IMG/VR virus record: IMGVR_UViG_2541047864_000006
DNA length: 46,863 nt
Direction: 5' to 3' (one strand)
Source: a virus
Lineage: Duplodnaviria > Heunggongvirae > Uroviricota > Caudoviricetes
Part shown: positions 36,921 to 46,863 of the stretch, one piece after another
How positions within the stretch are numbered: position 1 is the stretch's first letter
Layout of the letters: every line of letters starts with the position of its first letter
The notes under the pieces: generated by a model
What the model was told of the DNA's origin: nothing
Seen by the model: the letters and a program-made list of their open reading frames with translations, nothing else
Databases searched by the model: none
Position numbers and translations under genes: made by a program

Positions 36921-40322
<3,402 letters not shown>

Positions 40323-40338
40323 ATTTTATAACCCAGAA

Positions 40339-40366
40339 CGGGCGTCAGAAATGACGCCTTTTTTAT
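40339..40366 (+). terminator. Rho-independent terminator after J
   Basis: Perfect stem GGCGTCA/TGACGCC with GAAA loop then TTTTTT. Confidence 0.7.
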
Positions 40367-40388
40367 TGCAGAAAAGCGAGAGGTAATT

Positions 40389-40988
40389 ATGCGTAAATTA
40401 TGTGCTGTTATTCTGTCTGCAGTAGTCTGGCTGGTCGCCGCTGGTACGCCAGCGAGTGCAGCAGAGCATCAGTCCACACTAAGCGGCGGGTATCTTCAGT
40501 CCCATACTGATATGCCCGGCAACGATGACCTGAAGGGCATTAACGTGAAATACCGTTATGAATTTACGGACACGCTGGGGCTGGTGACGTCATTCAGCTA
40601 TGCAGGAGACAAGAATCGCCAGATTACCCGTTACAGCGATACCCGCTGGCATGAAGATTCAGTGCGTAACCGCTGGTTCAGCGTGATGGCGGGGCCGTCT
40701 GTACGCGTGAATGAATGGTTCAGTGCTTATGCGATGACGGGTGTGGCTTACAGCCGTGTTTCGACGTTCTCCGGGGATTATCTCCGCGTAACTGACAACA
40801 AGGGGAAAACGCACGATGTGCTGACCGGAAGTGATGGCGGTCGCCACAGCAACACGTCTCTGGCGTGGGGGGCTGGCGTGCAGTTTAACCCGACCGAATC
40901 CGTGGCCATTGACCTTGCTTATGAAGGTTCCGGCAGTGGCGACTGGCGCACTGACGGTTTCATCGTGGGTGTCGGTTATAAATTCTGA
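40389..40988 (+). CDS. lom: Lom outer-membrane protein (Ail/Lom family beta-barrel)
   Basis: 199 aa with signal peptide; Ail/Lom-like sequence; lambda lom position. Confidence 0.85.
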
Positions 40989-41014
40989 TTAGCCAGGTAA
41001 CACAGTGTTATGAC

Positions 41015-41042
41015 AGCCCGTCGGTTCAGGCGGGCTTTTTTG
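41015..41042 (+). terminator. Putative rho-independent terminator after lom
   Basis: GC-rich stem (AGCCCG/CGGGCT) followed by TTTTTT. Confidence 0.5.
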
Positions 41043-41052
41043 TGGAGTGGAT

Positions 41053-43764
41053 ATGGCAGCAGTAAAAATCTCAGGTGTGCTGAAAGATGGTGCGGGAAAA
41101 CCAATACAGAACTGCACTATTCAACTGAAGGCAAAGCGTAACAGCACCACGGTACTGGTGAACACGGTGGCCTCTGAAAATCCGGATGAAGCCGGGCGTT
41201 ACAGCATGGACGTTGAGTATGGCCAGTACAGCGTTATCCTGCTGGTTGAAGGTTTTCCGCCTTCACATGCCGGAACCATTACCGTCTATGAAGGTTCCAG
41301 ACCAGGTACGCTGAATGATTTTCTCGGTGCCATGACGGAAGATGATGTCATGCCGGAGGCATTGCGTCGTTTTGAGGAAATGGTGGAAGAAGCGGCACGC
41401 AACGCTGAAGCCGCCTCTCAGAGCGCAGCGGCGGCAAAGAAATCCGAAACTGCAGCGGCATCATCGAAGAACGCGGCGAAAACCTCAGAAACGAATGCAG
41501 CTAACAGCGCACAGGCGGCAGCGGCCTCGCAGACTGCATCGGCAAACTCCGCAACAGCAGCTAAAAAATCAGAAACCAACGCGAAAAATAGCGAGACAGC
41601 CGCAAAGACGAGCGAAACCAACGCAAAGTCCAGCCAGACGGCAGCGAAGACCAGCGAAACGAATGCCAAAACCAGTGAAACTGCAGCAAAAAACAGCCAG
41701 GTTGCAGCAGCCCAAAGCGAGAGCGCGGCAGCCGGTTCTGCGACTTCAGCAGCTGGATCAGCAACTGCTGCGGCTAACAGCCAGAAAGCTGCGAAGACGA
41801 GTGAAACTAACGCAAAGTCCAGCCAGACGGCAGCGAAGACCAGCGAAACGAATGCCAAAGCCAGTGAAACTGCAGCAAAAAACAGCCAGGTTGCAGCAGC
41901 CCAAAGCGAGAGCGCGGCAGCCGGTTCTGCGACTTCAGCAGCTGGATCAGCAACTGCTGCGGCTAACAGCCAGAAAGCTGCGAAGACGAGTGAAACCAAC
42001 GCAAAGTCCAGCCAGACGGCAGCGAAGACCAGCGAAACGAATGCCAAAACCAGTGAAACTGCAGCAAAAAACAGCCAGGTTGCAGCAGCCCAAAGCGAGA
42101 GCGCGGCAGCCGGTTCTGCGACTTCAGCAGCTGGATCAGCAACTAACGCAAAGTCCAGCCAGACGGCAGCGAAGACCAGCGAAACGAATGCCAAAGCCAG
42201 TGAAACTGCGGCGAAAAGCAGTCAGGATGCAGCGGCCCAAAGCGAGAGTGCCGCAGCCAGTTCTGCAAGCGCGGCGGCTGCTTCTGCTACTGCATCAGCT
42301 AACAGTCAAAAAGCAGCAAAAACCAGTGAAACCAACGCAAAGGTGAGCGAAACAGCGGCTGCGAGCTCAGCGAAAGCATCGGCAGCAAGCCAGACGGCAG
42401 CTAAAGCAAGCGAAGATGCAGCCAGAGAGTACGCAAGCCAGGCTGCGGAGCCGTATAAATATGTCTTACAGCCGCTGCCTGATGTGTGGATACCATTTAA
42501 CGATTCGCTGGATATGATTACGGGCTTTTCGCCATCATATAAAAAAATTGTTATTGGTGACGATGAAATAACGATGCCTGGCGACAAGATTGTTAAGTTT
42601 AAACGTGCATCGAAAGCAACCTATATTAACAAATCTGGTGTGCTGACAGAGGCTGCCATTGACGAGCCACGATTTGAACGTGATGGCCTGCTTATTGAGG
42701 GGCAAAGAACAAACTACATGCTCAATTCGGAAAGCCCTGCCAGTTGGGGGCGATCGTCAAATATGGATGTGCCCGAAACAGGGACGGATAATTTTGGTTT
42801 TACCTATGGAAAGTTTGTCTGCAACGATTCTCTGATTGGGCAAACCTCAGCCATTAATATGGCATCAATTGCTGCAACAAAGTCAGTTGATGTCTCAGGC
42901 GATAATAAACACGTGACAACCTCATGTCGTTTTAAAACAGAACTGCAGGTAAGGTTGCGTATCCGGTTTGATAAATATGACGGTAGCGCAACAACTTTTC
43001 TTGGTGATGCGTATATTGATACACAAACGCTTGAAATTAATATGACAGGCGGTGCTGCCTCAAGAATTACAGCGAGAGTCAGAAAGGACGAAGCTACCGG
43101 ATGGATTTTTGCAGAGGCAACAATTCAGGCAATTGATGGGGAGTTAAAAATAGGCTCTCAGATACAGTATTCTCCTAAGCAGAGCGGGGCAACCGTATCT
43201 GGTGACTATATTTATCTGGCCACCCCACAAGTAGAAGATGGGCCTTGTGTATCATCTTTTATTATATCAGGAGCGACGGCGGCGACCCGCGCAAGCGATA
43301 TAGTTACAGTTCCAATTAAGAATAATCTTTATAATCTTCCTTTTACGGTTCTTTGTGAGGTACATAAGAACTGGTATAAAACGCCAAATGCAGCGCCACG
43401 TGTTTTTGATACCGGCGGTCATCAAACCGGAGCGGCTATTATTCTTGGCTTCGGTCGTTCAACAGATTACGACGGATTTCCTTATTGCGATATTGGAGGA
43501 GCTAACAGACGGGTAAACGAAAACGCATTGCTTGAAAAAATGGTTATGGGGATGCGTGTAAAGTCAGATCAGTCTACGTGCTCAGTAAGTAACGGGCGTA
43601 TATCCAGCCAAACAAAAACCACATGGTCCTATATTCAGAACACCGCAATTATCCGTATTGGAGGCCAAACTACAGCCGGGTTACGTCATTTATTTGGTCA
43701 TGTCAGGAATTTCAGAATATGGCACAAGGCATTGACTGATGCTCAGGTGGGGGAGTCAATCTAA
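41053..43764 (+). CDS. stf: Side tail fibre Stf (lambda-like N-terminus, repetitive shaft, divergent C-terminal domain)
   Basis: ~903 aa from ATG 41053; N-terminal ~130 aa close to lambda Stf by recall; 63-aa tandem shaft repeats; C-terminal ~450 aa differ from lambda and look lectin/LamG-like. Confidence 0.85.
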   Translation: MAAVKISGVLKDGAGKPIQNCTIQLKAKRNSTTVLVNTVASENPDEAGRYSMDVEYGQYSVILLVEGFPPSHAGTITVYEGSRPGTLNDFLGAMTEDDVMPEALRRFEEMVEEAARNAEAASQSAAAAKKSETAAASSKNAAKTSETNAANSAQAAAASQTASANSATAAKKSETNAKNSETAAKTSETNAKSSQTAAKTSETNAKTSETAAKNSQVAAAQSESAAAGSATSAAGSATAAANSQKAAKTSETNAKSSQTAAKTSETNAKASETAAKNSQVAAAQSESAAAGSATSAAGSATAAANSQKAAKTSETNAKSSQTAAKTSETNAKTSETAAKNSQVAAAQSESAAAGSATSAAGSATNAKSSQTAAKTSETNAKASETAAKSSQDAAAQSESAAASSASAAAASATASANSQKAAKTSETNAKVSETAAASSAKASAASQTAAKASEDAAREYASQAAEPYKYVLQPLPDVWIPFNDSLDMITGFSPSYKKIVIGDDEITMPGDKIVKFKRASKATYINKSGVLTEAAIDEPRFERDGLLIEGQRTNYMLNSESPASWGRSSNMDVPETGTDNFGFTYGKFVCNDSLIGQTSAINMASIAATKSVDVSGDNKHVTTSCRFKTELQVRLRIRFDKYDGSATTFLGDAYIDTQTLEINMTGGAASRITARVRKDEATGWIFAEATIQAIDGELKIGSQIQYSPKQSGATVSGDYIYLATPQVEDGPCVSSFIISGATAATRASDIVTVPIKNNLYNLPFTVLCEVHKNWYKTPNAAPRVFDTGGHQTGAAIILGFGRSTDYDGFPYCDIGGANRRVNENALLEKMVMGMRVKSDQSTCSVSNGRISSQTKTTWSYIQNTAIIRIGGQTTAGLRHLFGHVRNFRIWHKALTDAQVGESI
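41599..42190. repeat. Tandem 189-bp repeat (~3.2 copies) within stf
   Basis: Repeat starts at 41599, 41788, 41977 (period 189); last copy carries a 42-bp deletion. Confidence 0.7.
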
Positions 43765-44045
43765 TGAAAGATTTAACACTCAAATTTCCCGACAGGGCCG
43801 ACTTTTCGGCCTTTATGGAGAGCATTGGCTATTATGATGACGAGTTGATGCAGGATGATATTCTTATTGACGTGATAGGTAACGTGTACAAAGAAACCGG
43901 AGAACTGACTGAAGATGGCGAACCGGTATGTGTTAAGGAAGACGGATATTTTGTAAACGTGCGCATCATTAATGATTCGCAAATATCGTCATTATTCGAT
44001 GAATACGTGGTTGCTGTTGAGCATCAACTTCGTGGCTGGATGTGA
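43764..44045 (+). CDS. Hypothetical acidic small protein (possible fibre chaperone/assembly factor)
   Basis: 93 aa, TAATG coupling to stf stop, GGGGGAG SD; lower GC than the upstream structural genes. Confidence 0.5.
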   Translation: MKDLTLKFPDRADFSAFMESIGYYDDELMQDDILIDVIGNVYKETGELTEDGEPVCVKEDGYFVNVRIINDSQISSLFDEYVVAVEHQLRGWM

Positions 44046-44054
44046 GGAAGAAAA

Positions 44055-45095
44055 ATGGCTACATCGACAGTAATTCCTGATGACATCAAAACGCTAAAAT
44101 CCGACGTTAGCAAATTAAAAAACGATCAAGGAAGCTACGCAACAAAATTATATGTAGACAGCAAAGATGAAATCGTTGGTGACTGGTCTGCTTCATGGTA
44201 TCAGCAGGTATTGCCAACTAGCGGAGCTATATTTGGGAGAAAACTCCGCTCAACTCACAGGACGGCAGGTGTTGAGGATGCGTATTGCGAACTATACCTC
44301 AAAAAATGGATAGACAGTCCAGGTAACGCAATGGCGCGCCTTAACCTGAACGATAACGGGACAAACATTTGCTGGGACTTTACCAACCTTTATGGCGGTA
44401 CGATGATTTTTCCCGGTGACAGCGGATACCTCAAAATGGGTAACTGCCTTATGTCATACAGCAAGCGTGGAAGTAACGCGCTTATTAAATTTGATTACAC
44501 CGACACATTACAGATCAAATATGCCAATCATGGGTCAACCATGACATTAAACACACAGGGAACCGCTTATGCTGGTGTTACTGCTCAATTGTGGGGCAAC
44601 TCCAGCCGTCCTGTTGTTTATGAAGTCGGTGTTGATGGTGGCGCTTATATGTTCTATGCGCAAAAAAATACCGATAACACCTATATGTTAAGCGTTAATG
44701 GTGCATGTCATGCCACCGCATTTAACCAGCATTCCGACCGGGATCTGAAAGACAACATTCAGGTGATCGATAATGCAACCGACCGCATCCGTAAAATGAA
44801 CGGCTATACATACACGCTTAAAGAAAACGGTATGCCCTATGCTGGTGTCATTGCACAGGAAGCTCTGGAAGCAATCCCAGAAGTTGTAGGTTCCGCAATG
44901 AAATATCAGGACGGTGCAAGCGGATCGGAAGGTGAAGAAGGTGAACGTTATTACACAGTAGATTATTCTGGTGTTACTGGCTTGCTTGTTCAGGTAGCCA
45001 GAGAGTCAGACGACAGAATAACAGCACTGGAAGAAGAAAACGCAGAATTAAGACAAAGATTATCTGCAATTGAGGCGGCGCTTGCGTCTAAATAA
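44055..45095 (+). CDS. Second tail-fibre-like protein with C-terminal intramolecular chaperone (peptidase S74-like) domain
   Basis: 346 aa; C-terminal DRDLKDNIQVIDNA...YTVDYSGVTGLLVQ...LEEENAELRQRL typical of self-cleaving fibre chaperone domains; GAGGAAG SD. Confidence 0.65.
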   Translation: MATSTVIPDDIKTLKSDVSKLKNDQGSYATKLYVDSKDEIVGDWSASWYQQVLPTSGAIFGRKLRSTHRTAGVEDAYCELYLKKWIDSPGNAMARLNLNDNGTNICWDFTNLYGGTMIFPGDSGYLKMGNCLMSYSKRGSNALIKFDYTDTLQIKYANHGSTMTLNTQGTAYAGVTAQLWGNSSRPVVYEVGVDGGAYMFYAQKNTDNTYMLSVNGACHATAFNQHSDRDLKDNIQVIDNATDRIRKMNGYTYTLKENGMPYAGVIAQEALEAIPEVVGSAMKYQDGASGSEGEEGERYYTVDYSGVTGLLVQVARESDDRITALEEENAELRQRLSAIEAALASK

Positions 45096-45099
45096 TATC

Positions 45100-45124
45100 A
45101 AGGGGCCGAGCGCCCCGTTTTATT
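45100..45124 (+). terminator. Putative rho-independent terminator
   Basis: Stem GGGGC/GCCCC, loop CGAGC, followed by GTTTTATT. Confidence 0.5.
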
Positions 45125-45131
45125 GGGTAGG

Positions 45132-45431
45132 ATGAAAATGGATATAACACCTTTCCTTCATGCGCTTTGTGCTGTGGCTGCGCAGCTACTGGTTGGTCTT
45201 TTTACCGGGAACTGGGCTTACGGGGCGATAGCCGGTTGTACGTTCTTCATTGCGCGTGAACACACCCAGGCGGAATATCGCTGGATTGAAATGTTTGGGC
45301 ATGGCAAGAGGATTAACATGCCGTGGTGGGGCGGTTTTGATCCGCGCGTGTGGGATGTGGCAAGCCTGATGGATTTTGCTGTGCCGGTGGTGGCGTGTCT
45401 GCTGGTCTGGCTGTTGGTTAATCGTGGGTGA
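45132..45431 (+). CDS. Small inner-membrane protein (candidate superinfection-exclusion/receptor-masking factor)
   Basis: ~99 aa with at least two predicted TM helices; located after fibre genes. Confidence 0.45.
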   Translation: MKMDITPFLHALCAVAAQLLVGLFTGNWAYGAIAGCTFFIAREHTQAEYRWIEMFGHGKRINMPWWGGFDPRVWDVASLMDFAVPVVACLLVWLLVNRG

Positions 45432-45453
45432 AAAAAGGTGAGCTGTATATGCA

Positions 45454-45561
45454 ATGGAGGAAGAAACCCCGTTGCTGGAAGCCTGGAAAAAGTATCGGGT
45501 GTTGCTGAACCGTGTTGATACGTCAACTGCACAGGATATTGAATGGCCAGCACTGCCGTAG
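45454..45561 (+). pseudogene. Remnant encoding only the conserved C-terminal ~35 aa of a Tfa tail-fibre assembly protein
   Basis: Translates to [35 protein letters not shown], which I recall as the conserved Tfa C-terminus; in-frame stop immediately upstream. Confidence 0.6.
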
Positions 45562-45658
45562 GGTAAAACATATAAATTCTATAATTAGATGTATCTTTCC
45601 ATTTACGGCAAGGAAGGGGGCTTGGAAGACGTAAAGCATCTCACACCGAGATTATTTT

Positions 45659-46249
45659 TTATATGTCAGGTGTCTGAAGTTTTGCTTTGGCTCTTAAAAT
45701 GGTTTGCCGCGAGGTTTTGAATTCCCGGGCAATGGCACTTATACTTACACCTGACTTAATTCGTTCGAATACCACCTGTTTCTGTTCTTCATTTAACACA
45801 GGTGGTCGACCAAAACGTTTCCCTGCGCCCCGGGCTCTTACTATCCCGGAATGAGTGCGTTCAAGTAAAAGGTCTCGTTCAAATTCAGCGACTGCTGAAA
45901 TTACTTGCATCATCATTTTTCCTGTTGGACTGGTCAGGTCAATGCCCCCCAATGCTAAGCAATGCACTCTGATACCTGTTTCGGTCAGTTGTTCCACTGT
46001 TTTCCTGATATCCATTGCATTACAACCAAGGCGATCCAGTTTTGTCACAATCAATTGATCACCACATTTCAGGCGAGCAAGCAACCGGTTAAAACCAGGA
46101 CGCTCACTGGTTGCTGCTGAGCCGCTAATGTGTTCTTCGATTATTTGCTGAGGTTTGATTTTAAAGCCTGCACTTTCGATTTCCCGGCGTTGATTTTCGG
46201 TGGTCTGATCCAGAGTTGATATCCGACAGTAAGCAAAAATTCGAGACAT
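45659..46249 (-). CDS. pin: Serine DNA invertase (Pin/Gin/Cin/Hin family)
   Basis: 196 aa; N-terminal YCRISTLDQ catalytic-serine motif and C-terminal HTH; matches E. coli prophage Pin invertases by recall. Confidence 0.95.
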
Positions 46250-46337
46250 AGTGAGACTCTATACGAAATTGGTGTACATATCATAATGCATATCCAAAAA
46301 TTATTTCGCTTATTATTGCACATATTTGTATGTATAC

Positions 46338-46435
46338 GTTCGAAAATAAACAAATTCGGATGCAGTCCCGTAATTTTGGTGTAACCTAAAATCGATTTTT
46401 TGAAAAATGGCTTTAACTCGGTTTGTTTTTCGAAC
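46338..46435. repeat. Imperfect inverted repeat (GTTCGAAAATAAACAAA / GTTTGTTTTTCGAAC) flanking palindrome AAAATCGATTTT, upstream of pin
   Basis: Read directly; 90-190 bp upstream of pin start codon. Confidence 0.35.
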
Positions 46436-46629
46436 TCCGGGCGGACTCGAGAAAGACGAATAATAGTGTTGTATGTTGTTTTAGCCAGATTTCAATTTGT
46501 TTGGTCTTGGAAAAGTGGAGCAAAAAGTTGTTAAAGTGGAAAAATGGTAAAAAAAGTAGGTTGTTGCGGAATAACGTAGTTGTTGATATTTTTTAATGCA
46601 TTGAAAAATTATTTTTCAGGGGGTGTTTA

Positions 46630-46863
46630 TTACACTTTACCATTTAAATTTTGGTTGTCTTTAAGAACTGATATCGCTGTTTGTAATAATTCTTTGTTAT
46701 CCAGCCATGACTTTTTCTTTATGTTTCCTTCAATGTAATCAAGCAATGTTCTGGTATTGATAGGTCTTCCCTGTTTTGCCACTTCCACGACAGCATCTCC
46801 CAGGATAATTCTGACTTCAGGAAGCTGCGCGGGGAACCACTTTAGGGTGTCATTTGATTTCAT
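46630..46863 (-). CDS. ydfK: YdfK-like small protein (cold-shock-induced prophage protein family)
   Basis: 77 aa; MKSNDTLKWFPAQLPEVRIILGDAVVEVAKQGRPINTRTLLDYIEG matches E. coli YdfK/YnaE by recall; start codon at window edge. Confidence 0.8.
   Translation of the reverse strand: MKSNDTLKWFPAQLPEVRIILGDAVVEVAKQGRPINTRTLLDYIEGNIKKKSWLDNKELLQTAISVLKDNQNLNGKV

Follow-up and report, generated by a model that had tools for sequence, protein, structure and literature searches.

A pinR/pinQ gene of an Escherichia coli lambdoid prophage as the probable remnant of a Tn3-family transposon

Members of the Hin/Gin/Cin/Pin group of invertases are about 60 to 70% identical to one another, and the lambdoid prophage genes pinR and pinQ have for decades carried the annotation "DNA invertase". 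PinQ, with which PinR is 99% identical, was previously uncharacterized and took its name from a 38% identity to PinE (Kirigo et al., Nucleic Acids Research [NAR] 2025, PMC12529663). In e14, the P segment comprises 1797 bp between inverted repeats TTGGTTTGGGAGAAGG, and its inversion makes a chimeric StfE2 that blocks T2 adsorption (PMC12529663). Here we analyze a gene of the PinR/PinQ type, pin, close to the right end of a 46,863-nucleotide stretch of DNA (the window; IMG/VR record IMGVR_UViG_2541047864_000006, Caudoviricetes), which represents the right arm of a lambdoid prophage of E. coli. An earlier description made from the letters alone (the sequence-only reading) had called pin an intact Pin/Gin-type invertase that might have been orphaned by a swap of the neighboring fibre module or might act on diverged or distant sites. 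We propose instead, with a probability of roughly 75%, that positions 45616 to 46362 of the window are the fossil right end of a Tn3-family transposon and not a fibre-switching invertase.

Probable descent of pin from a transposon resolvase

The pin open reading frame (ORF) has no internal stops, matches the Pfam families Resolvase (E 2.5e-36) and HTH_7, and is 99% identical to K-12 pinR at the nucleotide level; in RefSeq, the matching genes go by the names pinQ or pinR. Alignment of the window with the K-12 Rac prophage (tfaR-pinR-ynaE) extends from the tfa remnant to ydfK, and homology breaks at about 45450 inside tfa. Near-identity and the conserved context, in which tfa converges on pin and ydfK/ynaE, place the gene in the PinR/PinQ group. 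All NCBIfam families scored below their cut-offs, the best being the Mpi invertase family with 85 bits against 272 required. The gene itself is already known, while its reclassification and the replacement of Arg71 by cysteine described below appear to be new; our literature search returned no paper tying pinR or pinQ to Tn3 or to a resolvase.

The pin protein is 84% identical to the plasmid TnpR P0014 and 77% identical to a Shewanella TnpR, compared with 38% for PinE, 36% for Gin and 32% for gamma-delta resolvase, the motifs of the last two sequences agreeing with the database alignment. These values do not support close kinship with the Hin/Gin/Cin/Pin group. Of the "intact Pin/Gin-type invertase", the open frame of 196 amino acids (aa) thus stands, but the identity to PinE is low and a catalytic arginine has become a cysteine. 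Relatives outside Escherichia, found in a scan of one genome per species, are 59 to 78% identical, and none of them adjoins fibre genes.

What these relatives adjoin instead is a transposase. P0014, a 196-aa protein that our protein search showed to be abundant on E. coli plasmids and that is sometimes named "resolvase", lies in five of six plasmid loci 160 bp from a divergent 994-aa transposase with DUF4158 and DDE_Tnp_Tn3 domains. The Shewanella homologue also has an adjoining divergent TnpA with both domains (E 1e-148), to which the plasmid TnpA is 84% identical; the divergent neighbor of a Parasedimentitalea relative carries DUF4158, and TnpA fragments adjoin the homologue at two further loci (L014 and L018). 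The plasmid element is about 3.8 kb long, with terminal inverted repeats of 38 to 40 bp (GGGGTCCGCTTGGAAAACGGAAAATATCCCACGCTAAGAC) at both ends. As expected of a mobile transposon, its flanks vary among plasmids, and a 5-bp target duplication, TAATA, is seen at locus L033. It occurs at a coverage of at least 80% in 186 plasmids, where PGAP annotates a "Tn3 family transposase" and a "recombinase family protein". Since no Tn3-family transposase gene adjoins pin in the window and one does in relatives at 77 to 84% identity, the window copy is a relic and not a transposon.

Both sides of pin carry further traces of this origin. In the transposon, the right terminal inverted repeat (IR-R) starts a few bases past the tnpR stop codon; it is validated as a terminal repeat by the copy at the other end, the differing flanks and the 5-bp duplication in L033. 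From the stop codon through the terminal C-run, the transposon (TAAAAAATAGTCTTAGCGTGGGATATTTTCCGTTTTCCAAGCGGACCCC) and the window (TAAAAAATAATCTCGGTGTGAGATGCTTTACGTCTTCCAAGCCCCC) align without gaps in a fixed register, with 33 matches in 42 columns, 24 of which are invariant over six sequences, K-12 and the diverged L035 lineage among them. Of the terminal repeats of about 38 bp that begin with GGGG at the element end, the right one alone survives: the left repeat was found neither between res and ydfK nor in the rest of the window. A tnpA remnant was likewise absent from the window, including the interval between res and ydfK (best tblastn E 3.7), as was a second res.

On the other side, the alignment of the 130 bp upstream of pin to the res of six transposon copies is free of gaps. 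In the relatives outside Escherichia, the upstream array reads, in order, a 26-bp palindrome (TGACCGAAACCGGTCGGTTTCGTACA), a 32-bp site in which the half-sites of the 26-bp palindrome are set wider apart, a -10 box, a third site and the ATG. Identity between window and plasmid transposon is 70% over res, 83% over the ORF and 69% over the 3' flank and inverted repeat. In the window, the subsite III-like element, of which half-site TATACGAAA matches the consensus YRTMCGAAA exactly, overlaps a candidate pin -10 box (TATGAT, 46280-46285, minus strand); the right half-site of the subsite II-like element, TATCCAAAA, has one mismatch; and the subsite I-like dyad stands where the relatives have their palindromic 26-bp site I, each half-site of the dyad lying within one mismatch of the consensus. 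Matches to this consensus in the whole window are as frequent as chance predicts (62 against 62.5 expected, or 1.3 per kb), and four of them fall within 103 bp (46260-46362) in the expected positions and orientations. To judge from this alignment, the region appears to be the three-subsite res array found upstream of tnpR, preserved as a decayed relic.

The sequence-only reading had pointed to a dyad and a palindrome upstream of pin, and both are there. The pin-proximal arm of the dyad would be the decayed res site I and not a gix- or pix-like site. The distal arm, whose K-12 form is ACTCGAAAAACAAACCGAGT, is a lone half-site and not a full dimer site, its partner half 8 bp away mismatching the consensus, and it too lies outside the transposon-derived stretch. 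The palindrome AAAATCGATTTT is conserved in K-12 Rac, L003, L035 and the decayed copy L022; another decayed copy, L023, has the degraded form AAAATGGATTTT, and the transposon res regions compared contain nothing equivalent. We considered it as a vestigial hix-like site 5' of the gene, as in Hin and Gin, and rejected this candidate for its location outside the transposon stretch and its lack of a counterpart in the relatives.

These findings lead us to a model in which a Tn3-family transposon would have inserted into a lambdoid phage, in the stretch of its accessory "b" region that separates tfa from ydfK. Of this element, the left end and the transposase gene would then have been lost, with IR-R, tnpR (now pinR/pinQ) and the three-subsite res array surviving, the latter possibly doubling as a promoter/operator region. 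Since the window holds no second res, the enzyme would have nothing to resolve or invert in cis; the genome that matches the window at 100% contains a single copy of the relic, and there is therefore no partner site. PinR probably still binds the res relic and, by analogy with TnpR in Tn3 and gamma-delta, may autoregulate its own promoter, while effects on distant invertible segments would be weak or indirect. In this scenario, the gene would never have been a tail-fibre invertase, its position beside stf and tfa would be an accident of insertion, and the module swap would be unrelated.

Loss of a catalytic arginine under continued constraint

The invariant motif KLDRLGR reads KLDRLGC in the pin protein. 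The cysteine, Cys76 (window 46022-46024), occupies the position of Arg71 of Tn3 and gamma-delta resolvase. Codon 76 is TGT in 14 of the 14 intact phage and prophage copies examined, among them K-12 pinR, 2H10, Turner, Shigella, E. ruysiae and the 90%-identical L035 lineage, which is also convergent with a tfa gene; it is CGN (Arg) in all transposon-borne copies, and Gin, PinE and gamma-delta resolvase have arginine as well. The remaining catalytic residues (Y6, R8, S10, D67 and R68 in Tn3 numbering) are present, the catalytic set Y6, R8, S10, R68 and R71 thus being incomplete at R71; D36 is Glu throughout the clade. In an activated variant of Tn3 resolvase, the substitutions R71A and R71K abolished resolution in vivo and slowed cleavage by about 10^3-fold, and binding to site I was kept (PMC2794168). 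Together with the cysteine at the equivalent position, these data suggest that catalysis by PinR is probably crippled and DNA binding kept, which would make it a very poor recombinase or none at all.

The ORF has not been released from selection. Window pin and K-12 pinR differ by five synonymous and no non-synonymous changes. The dN/dS ratio is 0.13 against plasmid tnpR and 0.38 between two prophage lineages, and three-taxon branch arithmetic assigns about 0.3 to 0.45 to the prophage branches and about 0.1 to the transposon/stem branch. Eight pin alleles carry six synonymous and five non-synonymous segregating codons, and two copies (L022 and L023) are frameshifted. From the ratios and the allele counts, we conclude that the pin ORF is still constrained, about threefold less than on the transposon.

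This constraint leaves room for a further idea, which we consider doubtful but worth stating, namely that the phage lineage represents an exapted, catalytically disabled resolvase kept by purifying selection as a DNA-binding protein, in line with a dN/dS of about 0.3 and with intact copies in viable phages and about half of E. coli genomes. Such a protein could regulate the ydfK-pin region. It could also be a dominant-negative or repressor that acts on plasmid transposon res or on other serine recombinases, for example PinE, and in this second role it would account for the published PinQ phenotypes with no strand exchange catalyzed by PinQ.

Several points weigh against our interpretation. By sequence score, the pin protein comes slightly nearer to Gin, at 105 bits, than to gamma-delta resolvase, at 83 bits, and its 26-bp site I has the length of hix and gix sites, so that some invertase-like behavior is conceivable. 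Between the window and the K-12 type, the res relic shows marked differences, though the proteins are 99 to 100% identical, which speaks against a strongly selected operator. That the relic varies far more than the ORF fits site decay, the K-12-type relic being more degenerate than the window type. The effect of the Arg-to-Cys change in PinR is judged by analogy with Ala and Lys substitutions in an activated Tn3 enzyme. Lastly, PinQ overproduction raised inversion of the e14 P segment from about 30% in the wild type to 88%, as determined by quantitative PCR, and deletion of pinQ lowered both inversion and T2 survival (PMC12529663). These data argue for real recombinase activity on distant pix sites.

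Alternatives to a transposon relic

The last-mentioned data are the foundation of the most serious rival, in which PinR and PinQ are trans-acting invertases that directly invert the pix-flanked e14 P segment, or a similar one, and so switch T2-blocking chimeric tail fibres. In its favor, T2 survivors carrying pCA24N-pinQ had the 1797-bp P segment inverted, the pinQ deletion increased sensitivity to T2, and pinQ and pinR transcripts were induced 14-fold by T2 (PMC12529663). The 26-bp site I of the clade and its A-tract half-sites also bear a loose resemblance to hix and pix sites. On the other hand, the P segment was locked in a pinE deletion strain that retained pinQ and pinR (PMC12529663), PinR lacks the equivalent of Arg71, a residue that Tn3 resolvase needs for catalysis (PMC2794168), and the PinR recognition helix is near-identical to that of plasmid TnpR. 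In our own comparison, the cognate half-site TGACCGAAACCG and the pix half-site TTCTCCCAAACC agree at 5 of 12 positions, and the window holds no pix site. The main text of the same study contains neither a PinQ test in a pinE-null background nor an in vitro assay that we could find, and the paper does not mention Tn3 (PMC12529663). Given the locked P segment and the lack of these two experiments, the published PinQ phenotype is compatible with an indirect effect, and direct catalysis is unproven.

Prevalence bears on this rival as well. Of 5426 complete E. coli genomes, 2847 contain the pin relic, at up to six copies each (a higher count of 5223 of 5426 was rejected as a measure of pin, the query having also held tfa and ydfK sequence), against 170 genomes in which an e14-type P segment and pinE are at least 80% covered in one piece, which is an undercount, as an inverted P segment splits the match. 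Inversion of e14 therefore cannot be the general role of the pin gene. Taking these points together, we regard direct inversion in trans as improbable; the suggestion that pin acts on diverged or distant sites agrees with the published claim but is opposed by the lost arginine, the Tn3-family TnpR helix-turn-helix and the locked P segment. If pin is indeed a tnpR fossil, a sharp and cheap control follows for the 2025 claim of direct P-segment inversion as an anti-phage defence.

We find it considerably harder to believe that pin is a still-active resolvase whose res relic recombines with the res of other pin prophages or of the plasmid transposon, resolving cointegrates in trans or causing rearrangements of prophages and plasmids. 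Such activity would be in keeping with an ORF that about half of E. coli genomes carry intact, at up to six copies per genome, and with a related transposon (84% TnpR identity) that is common on Escherichia and Klebsiella plasmids, as well as with chimeric tnpR/pin proteins and a sequence switch located exactly within site I at locus L032. Against it stand the loss of the Arg71 equivalent, res subsites that are degenerate and variable among copies, the presence of one copy only in the matching genome, and the fact that the chimeras are explicable by homologous recombination or assembly artefacts. In addition, Tn3 and gamma-delta resolvases require two full, directly repeated res on one supercoiled molecule.

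The sequences just mentioned deserve description in their own right. Five chimeric recombinases (P0004 to P0008) combine an N-terminal part of plasmid TnpR, including Arg76, with a C-terminal part of PinR; they might stem from recombination of a prophage pin with a plasmid tnpR, and those on short metagenome contigs could equally be assembly chimeras. In L032 (5880-6000), a plasmid tnpR lacks tnpA, and its sequence switches within the left half of res site I (CGGACGAAAACGACCGG to TTTCGGACA), as expected of site-I recombination with a different res. In Erwinia oleae (L016, 1268-2652), a mirror-image res arrangement with one shared central site I lies between two tnpR paralogues in divergent orientation, whose identities to PinR are 72% and 78%. 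Near-identical pin genes on contigs of metagenome-assembled genomes assigned to Alistipes, Draconibacterium and Caldithrix (L004, L007 and L008), and in a Nocardioides assembly (L028), are most likely contamination by E. coli or phage.

The final alternative is a Gin/Pin-family invertase that lost its invertible segment and crossover sites at the module swap. Searches for such sites gave nothing beyond expectation. The pix half-site of e14, TTCTCCCAAACCAA, matched the whole window six times at up to three mismatches (4.8 expected), and the invertase core AAACCNNGGTTT matched 15 times at up to two mismatches (23 expected), with none past 38313. No inverted-repeat pair brackets a pin-adjacent segment between 40000 and 46863, where short or low-identity pairs alone were found, nor is there a bracketing pair in this region when extended to the prophage end in a near-identical genome, or from pin to the prophage end in the related loci L001 and L002. 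The 26-bp inverted crossover sites of invertases (consensus TTATCNAAAACC-NN-GGTTTTNGATAA) are thus not found around such a segment, and the matching E. coli genomes are all collinear across the region. The sequence-only reading had seen no gix- or pix-like sites and no invertible fibre segment, and the systematic search bears this out. One perfect 16-nucleotide inverted repeat (GTGCTGTTATTCTGTC at 40402-40417 and GACAGAATAACAGCAC at 45012-45027) has one arm in the signal-peptide region of lom and the other in the C-terminal part of the 346-aa fibre gene; for a window of this size, the expected number of such pairs is about 0.26, and the repeat is unlike any known recombinase site.

The swap itself did not orphan pin, contrary to what had been suggested, since the layout in which tfa converges on pin-ydfK recurs in K-12 Rac and in two viable lambdoid phages, 2H10 and Turner, where stf and tfa are complete and there is no invertible segment; in the phages, the gene has the label "DNA invertase" and stands between tfa and dinI/int. 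That pin is a fibre invertase whose segment and crossover sites went with the swap is scarcely credible: the swap is real, the gene converges on the fibre genes, Gin (E 3e-29) is the best match among solved structures and several phage records say "DNA invertase", but the pin-ydfK block has no invertible segment where stf and tfa are intact, the protein is at 36 to 38% identity to Gin and PinE against 84% to transposon TnpR, the gene stands between a Tn3-type terminal repeat and a res array, and a published BLAST survey found inversions in e14 alone, with none in Rac or Qin (PMC12529663). As the descendant of a transposon resolvase, pin was never a fibre invertase, and an invertible fibre segment or a gix/pix site is therefore not to be expected beside it. 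If our reading is true, the puzzle of "invertases" that have no invertible segment disappears, the annotation should change to resolvase relic, and a phase-variable host-range switch is not to be expected in this prophage.

Locus layout and comparison with known systems

The coordinates of the transposon-derived features and of the neighboring genes are collected in Table 1.

Table 1. Features of the right part of the window, in window coordinates.
Feature	Position	Strand	Remarks
J	36924-40322
lom	40389-40988
stf, side tail fibre	41047-43764	+	phage_tail_N domain, Ala/Ser/Thr-rich repeats, unusual C terminus
93-aa ORF	43764-44045	+
346-aa fibre protein	44055-45095	+	Peptidase_S74 (endosialidase-type) chaperone domain
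102-aa membrane ORF	45123-45431	+
tfa 3' remnant, tail-fibre assembly gene	~45450-45560	+	last ~36 codons and stop; right breakpoint of fibre module swap
Decayed right terminal inverted repeat (IR-R), Tn3-family	45616-45652		+ strand GGGGGCTTGGAAGACGTAAAGCATCTCACACCGAGAT; outer end 45616
pin	45659-46249	-	196-aa small serine recombinase, pinR/pinQ orthologue
res subsite III-like	46260-46281	-	position homologous to tnpR-nearest site in six transposon-borne relatives
res subsite II-like	46291-46322	-	left half degenerate; aligns with transposon res TGTCCGAAAGT.AG.GAAAT.A.TTTCGGATA
res subsite I-like 26-bp dyad	46337-46362	-	CATCCGAAT-TTGTTTAT-TTTCGAACG in pin orientation, 9+8+9
Palindrome AAAATCGATTTT	46388-46399		outside transposon-derived stretch
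Distal dyad arm	46417-46436		inverted partial copy of one site-I half and spacer, AGTTCGAAAAACAAACCGAG in pin orientation
ydfK/ynaE-type gene, 77 aa	46630-46863	-	upstream of and co-directional with pin; in conserved ydfK-pin block

All fibre genes lie on the plus strand, and pin converges on them, as had been noted before. In the fibre module swap, a new stf C terminus and three ORFs replaced tfa except for its last 36 codons; the lambda-type N-terminal domain of stf and its tandem repeats of about 189 bp (~41580-42140) were kept, and the C-terminal domain is different. The same module is present in an E. ruysiae locus (L003), where tblastn matched TfaR residues 156 to 191. In the window, the alignment to the end of K-12 tfaR starts at about 45450, and the remnant is annotated as a partial pseudogene in NZ_CP027579.1, a near-identical genome. 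For lambda and other phages that have no pin, matching stops at the tfa end (window ~45551-45567). An Rfam scan of 40000-46863 returned no structured RNA beyond one match below threshold, IS009 (RF02111), over the tfa remnant (45429-45527, plus strand; 66 bits against a gathering score of 117). In NZ_CP027579.1, the prophage adjoins prfC, and the order onward is ydfK, ynaM/ynfT, a dinI-like gene and the prophage end; the ydfK-type gene is annotated there as "cold shock protein YdfK" and in K-12 Rac as ynaE. The spacer between pin and ydfK measures 380 bp, of which about 64 bp (46566-46628), directly after the ydfK stop codon, are missing from K-12 Rac. A promoter and terminator scan found no excess over shuffled expectation and missed the candidate pin -10 box.

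Among described systems, the K-12 genes pinR (Rac, b1374) and pinQ (Qin, b1545) are the same gene in the same setting, sharing the length of 196 aa, Cys76, the flanks and the convergent orientation; the window differs in that tfa is cut to its last 36 codons and the ydfK-pin spacer is 64 bp longer. In comparison with Rac, the res relic of the window is less decayed, having retained the half-sites CATCCGAAT and TATCCAAAA. The TnpR of the Escherichia plasmid transposon (NZ_CP012500.1; P0014) and its kin in Shewanella, Photorhabdus and Erwinia have the same length and a near-identical recognition helix (77 to 78% aa identity to PinR in Shewanella and Erwinia), and the transposon copies share with pin a homologous upstream res array and a terminal inverted repeat right after the stop codon. 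They differ in having a divergent tnpA, both inverted repeats, clean consensus half-sites and Arg76, whereas the window copy has neither tnpA nor the left repeat, and has decayed sites and Cys76.

The resemblance to the invertases Hin, Gin, Cin and PinE, which depend on Fis bound at an enhancer inside the 5' part of the recombinase gene (Fis sites being too degenerate for calls from sequence), is of another kind and consists of the small serine recombinase fold, the C-terminal HTH_7, adjoining tail-fibre genes and historical naming; pin differs from them in its accessory res subsites, a different recognition helix and the change of DRLGR to DRLGC. With Tn3 and gamma-delta, finally, the locus shares the layout in which tnpA and tnpR diverge from a res with sites I, II and III that overlap the promoters, and the half-site TGTCCGAAA resembles the left half of gamma-delta site I. 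Gamma-delta site I is 28 bp long, compared with 26 bp in this clade, and at 32% aa identity the proteins are set apart by the replacement of D36 by Glu throughout the clade and of R71 by Cys in the phage lineage.

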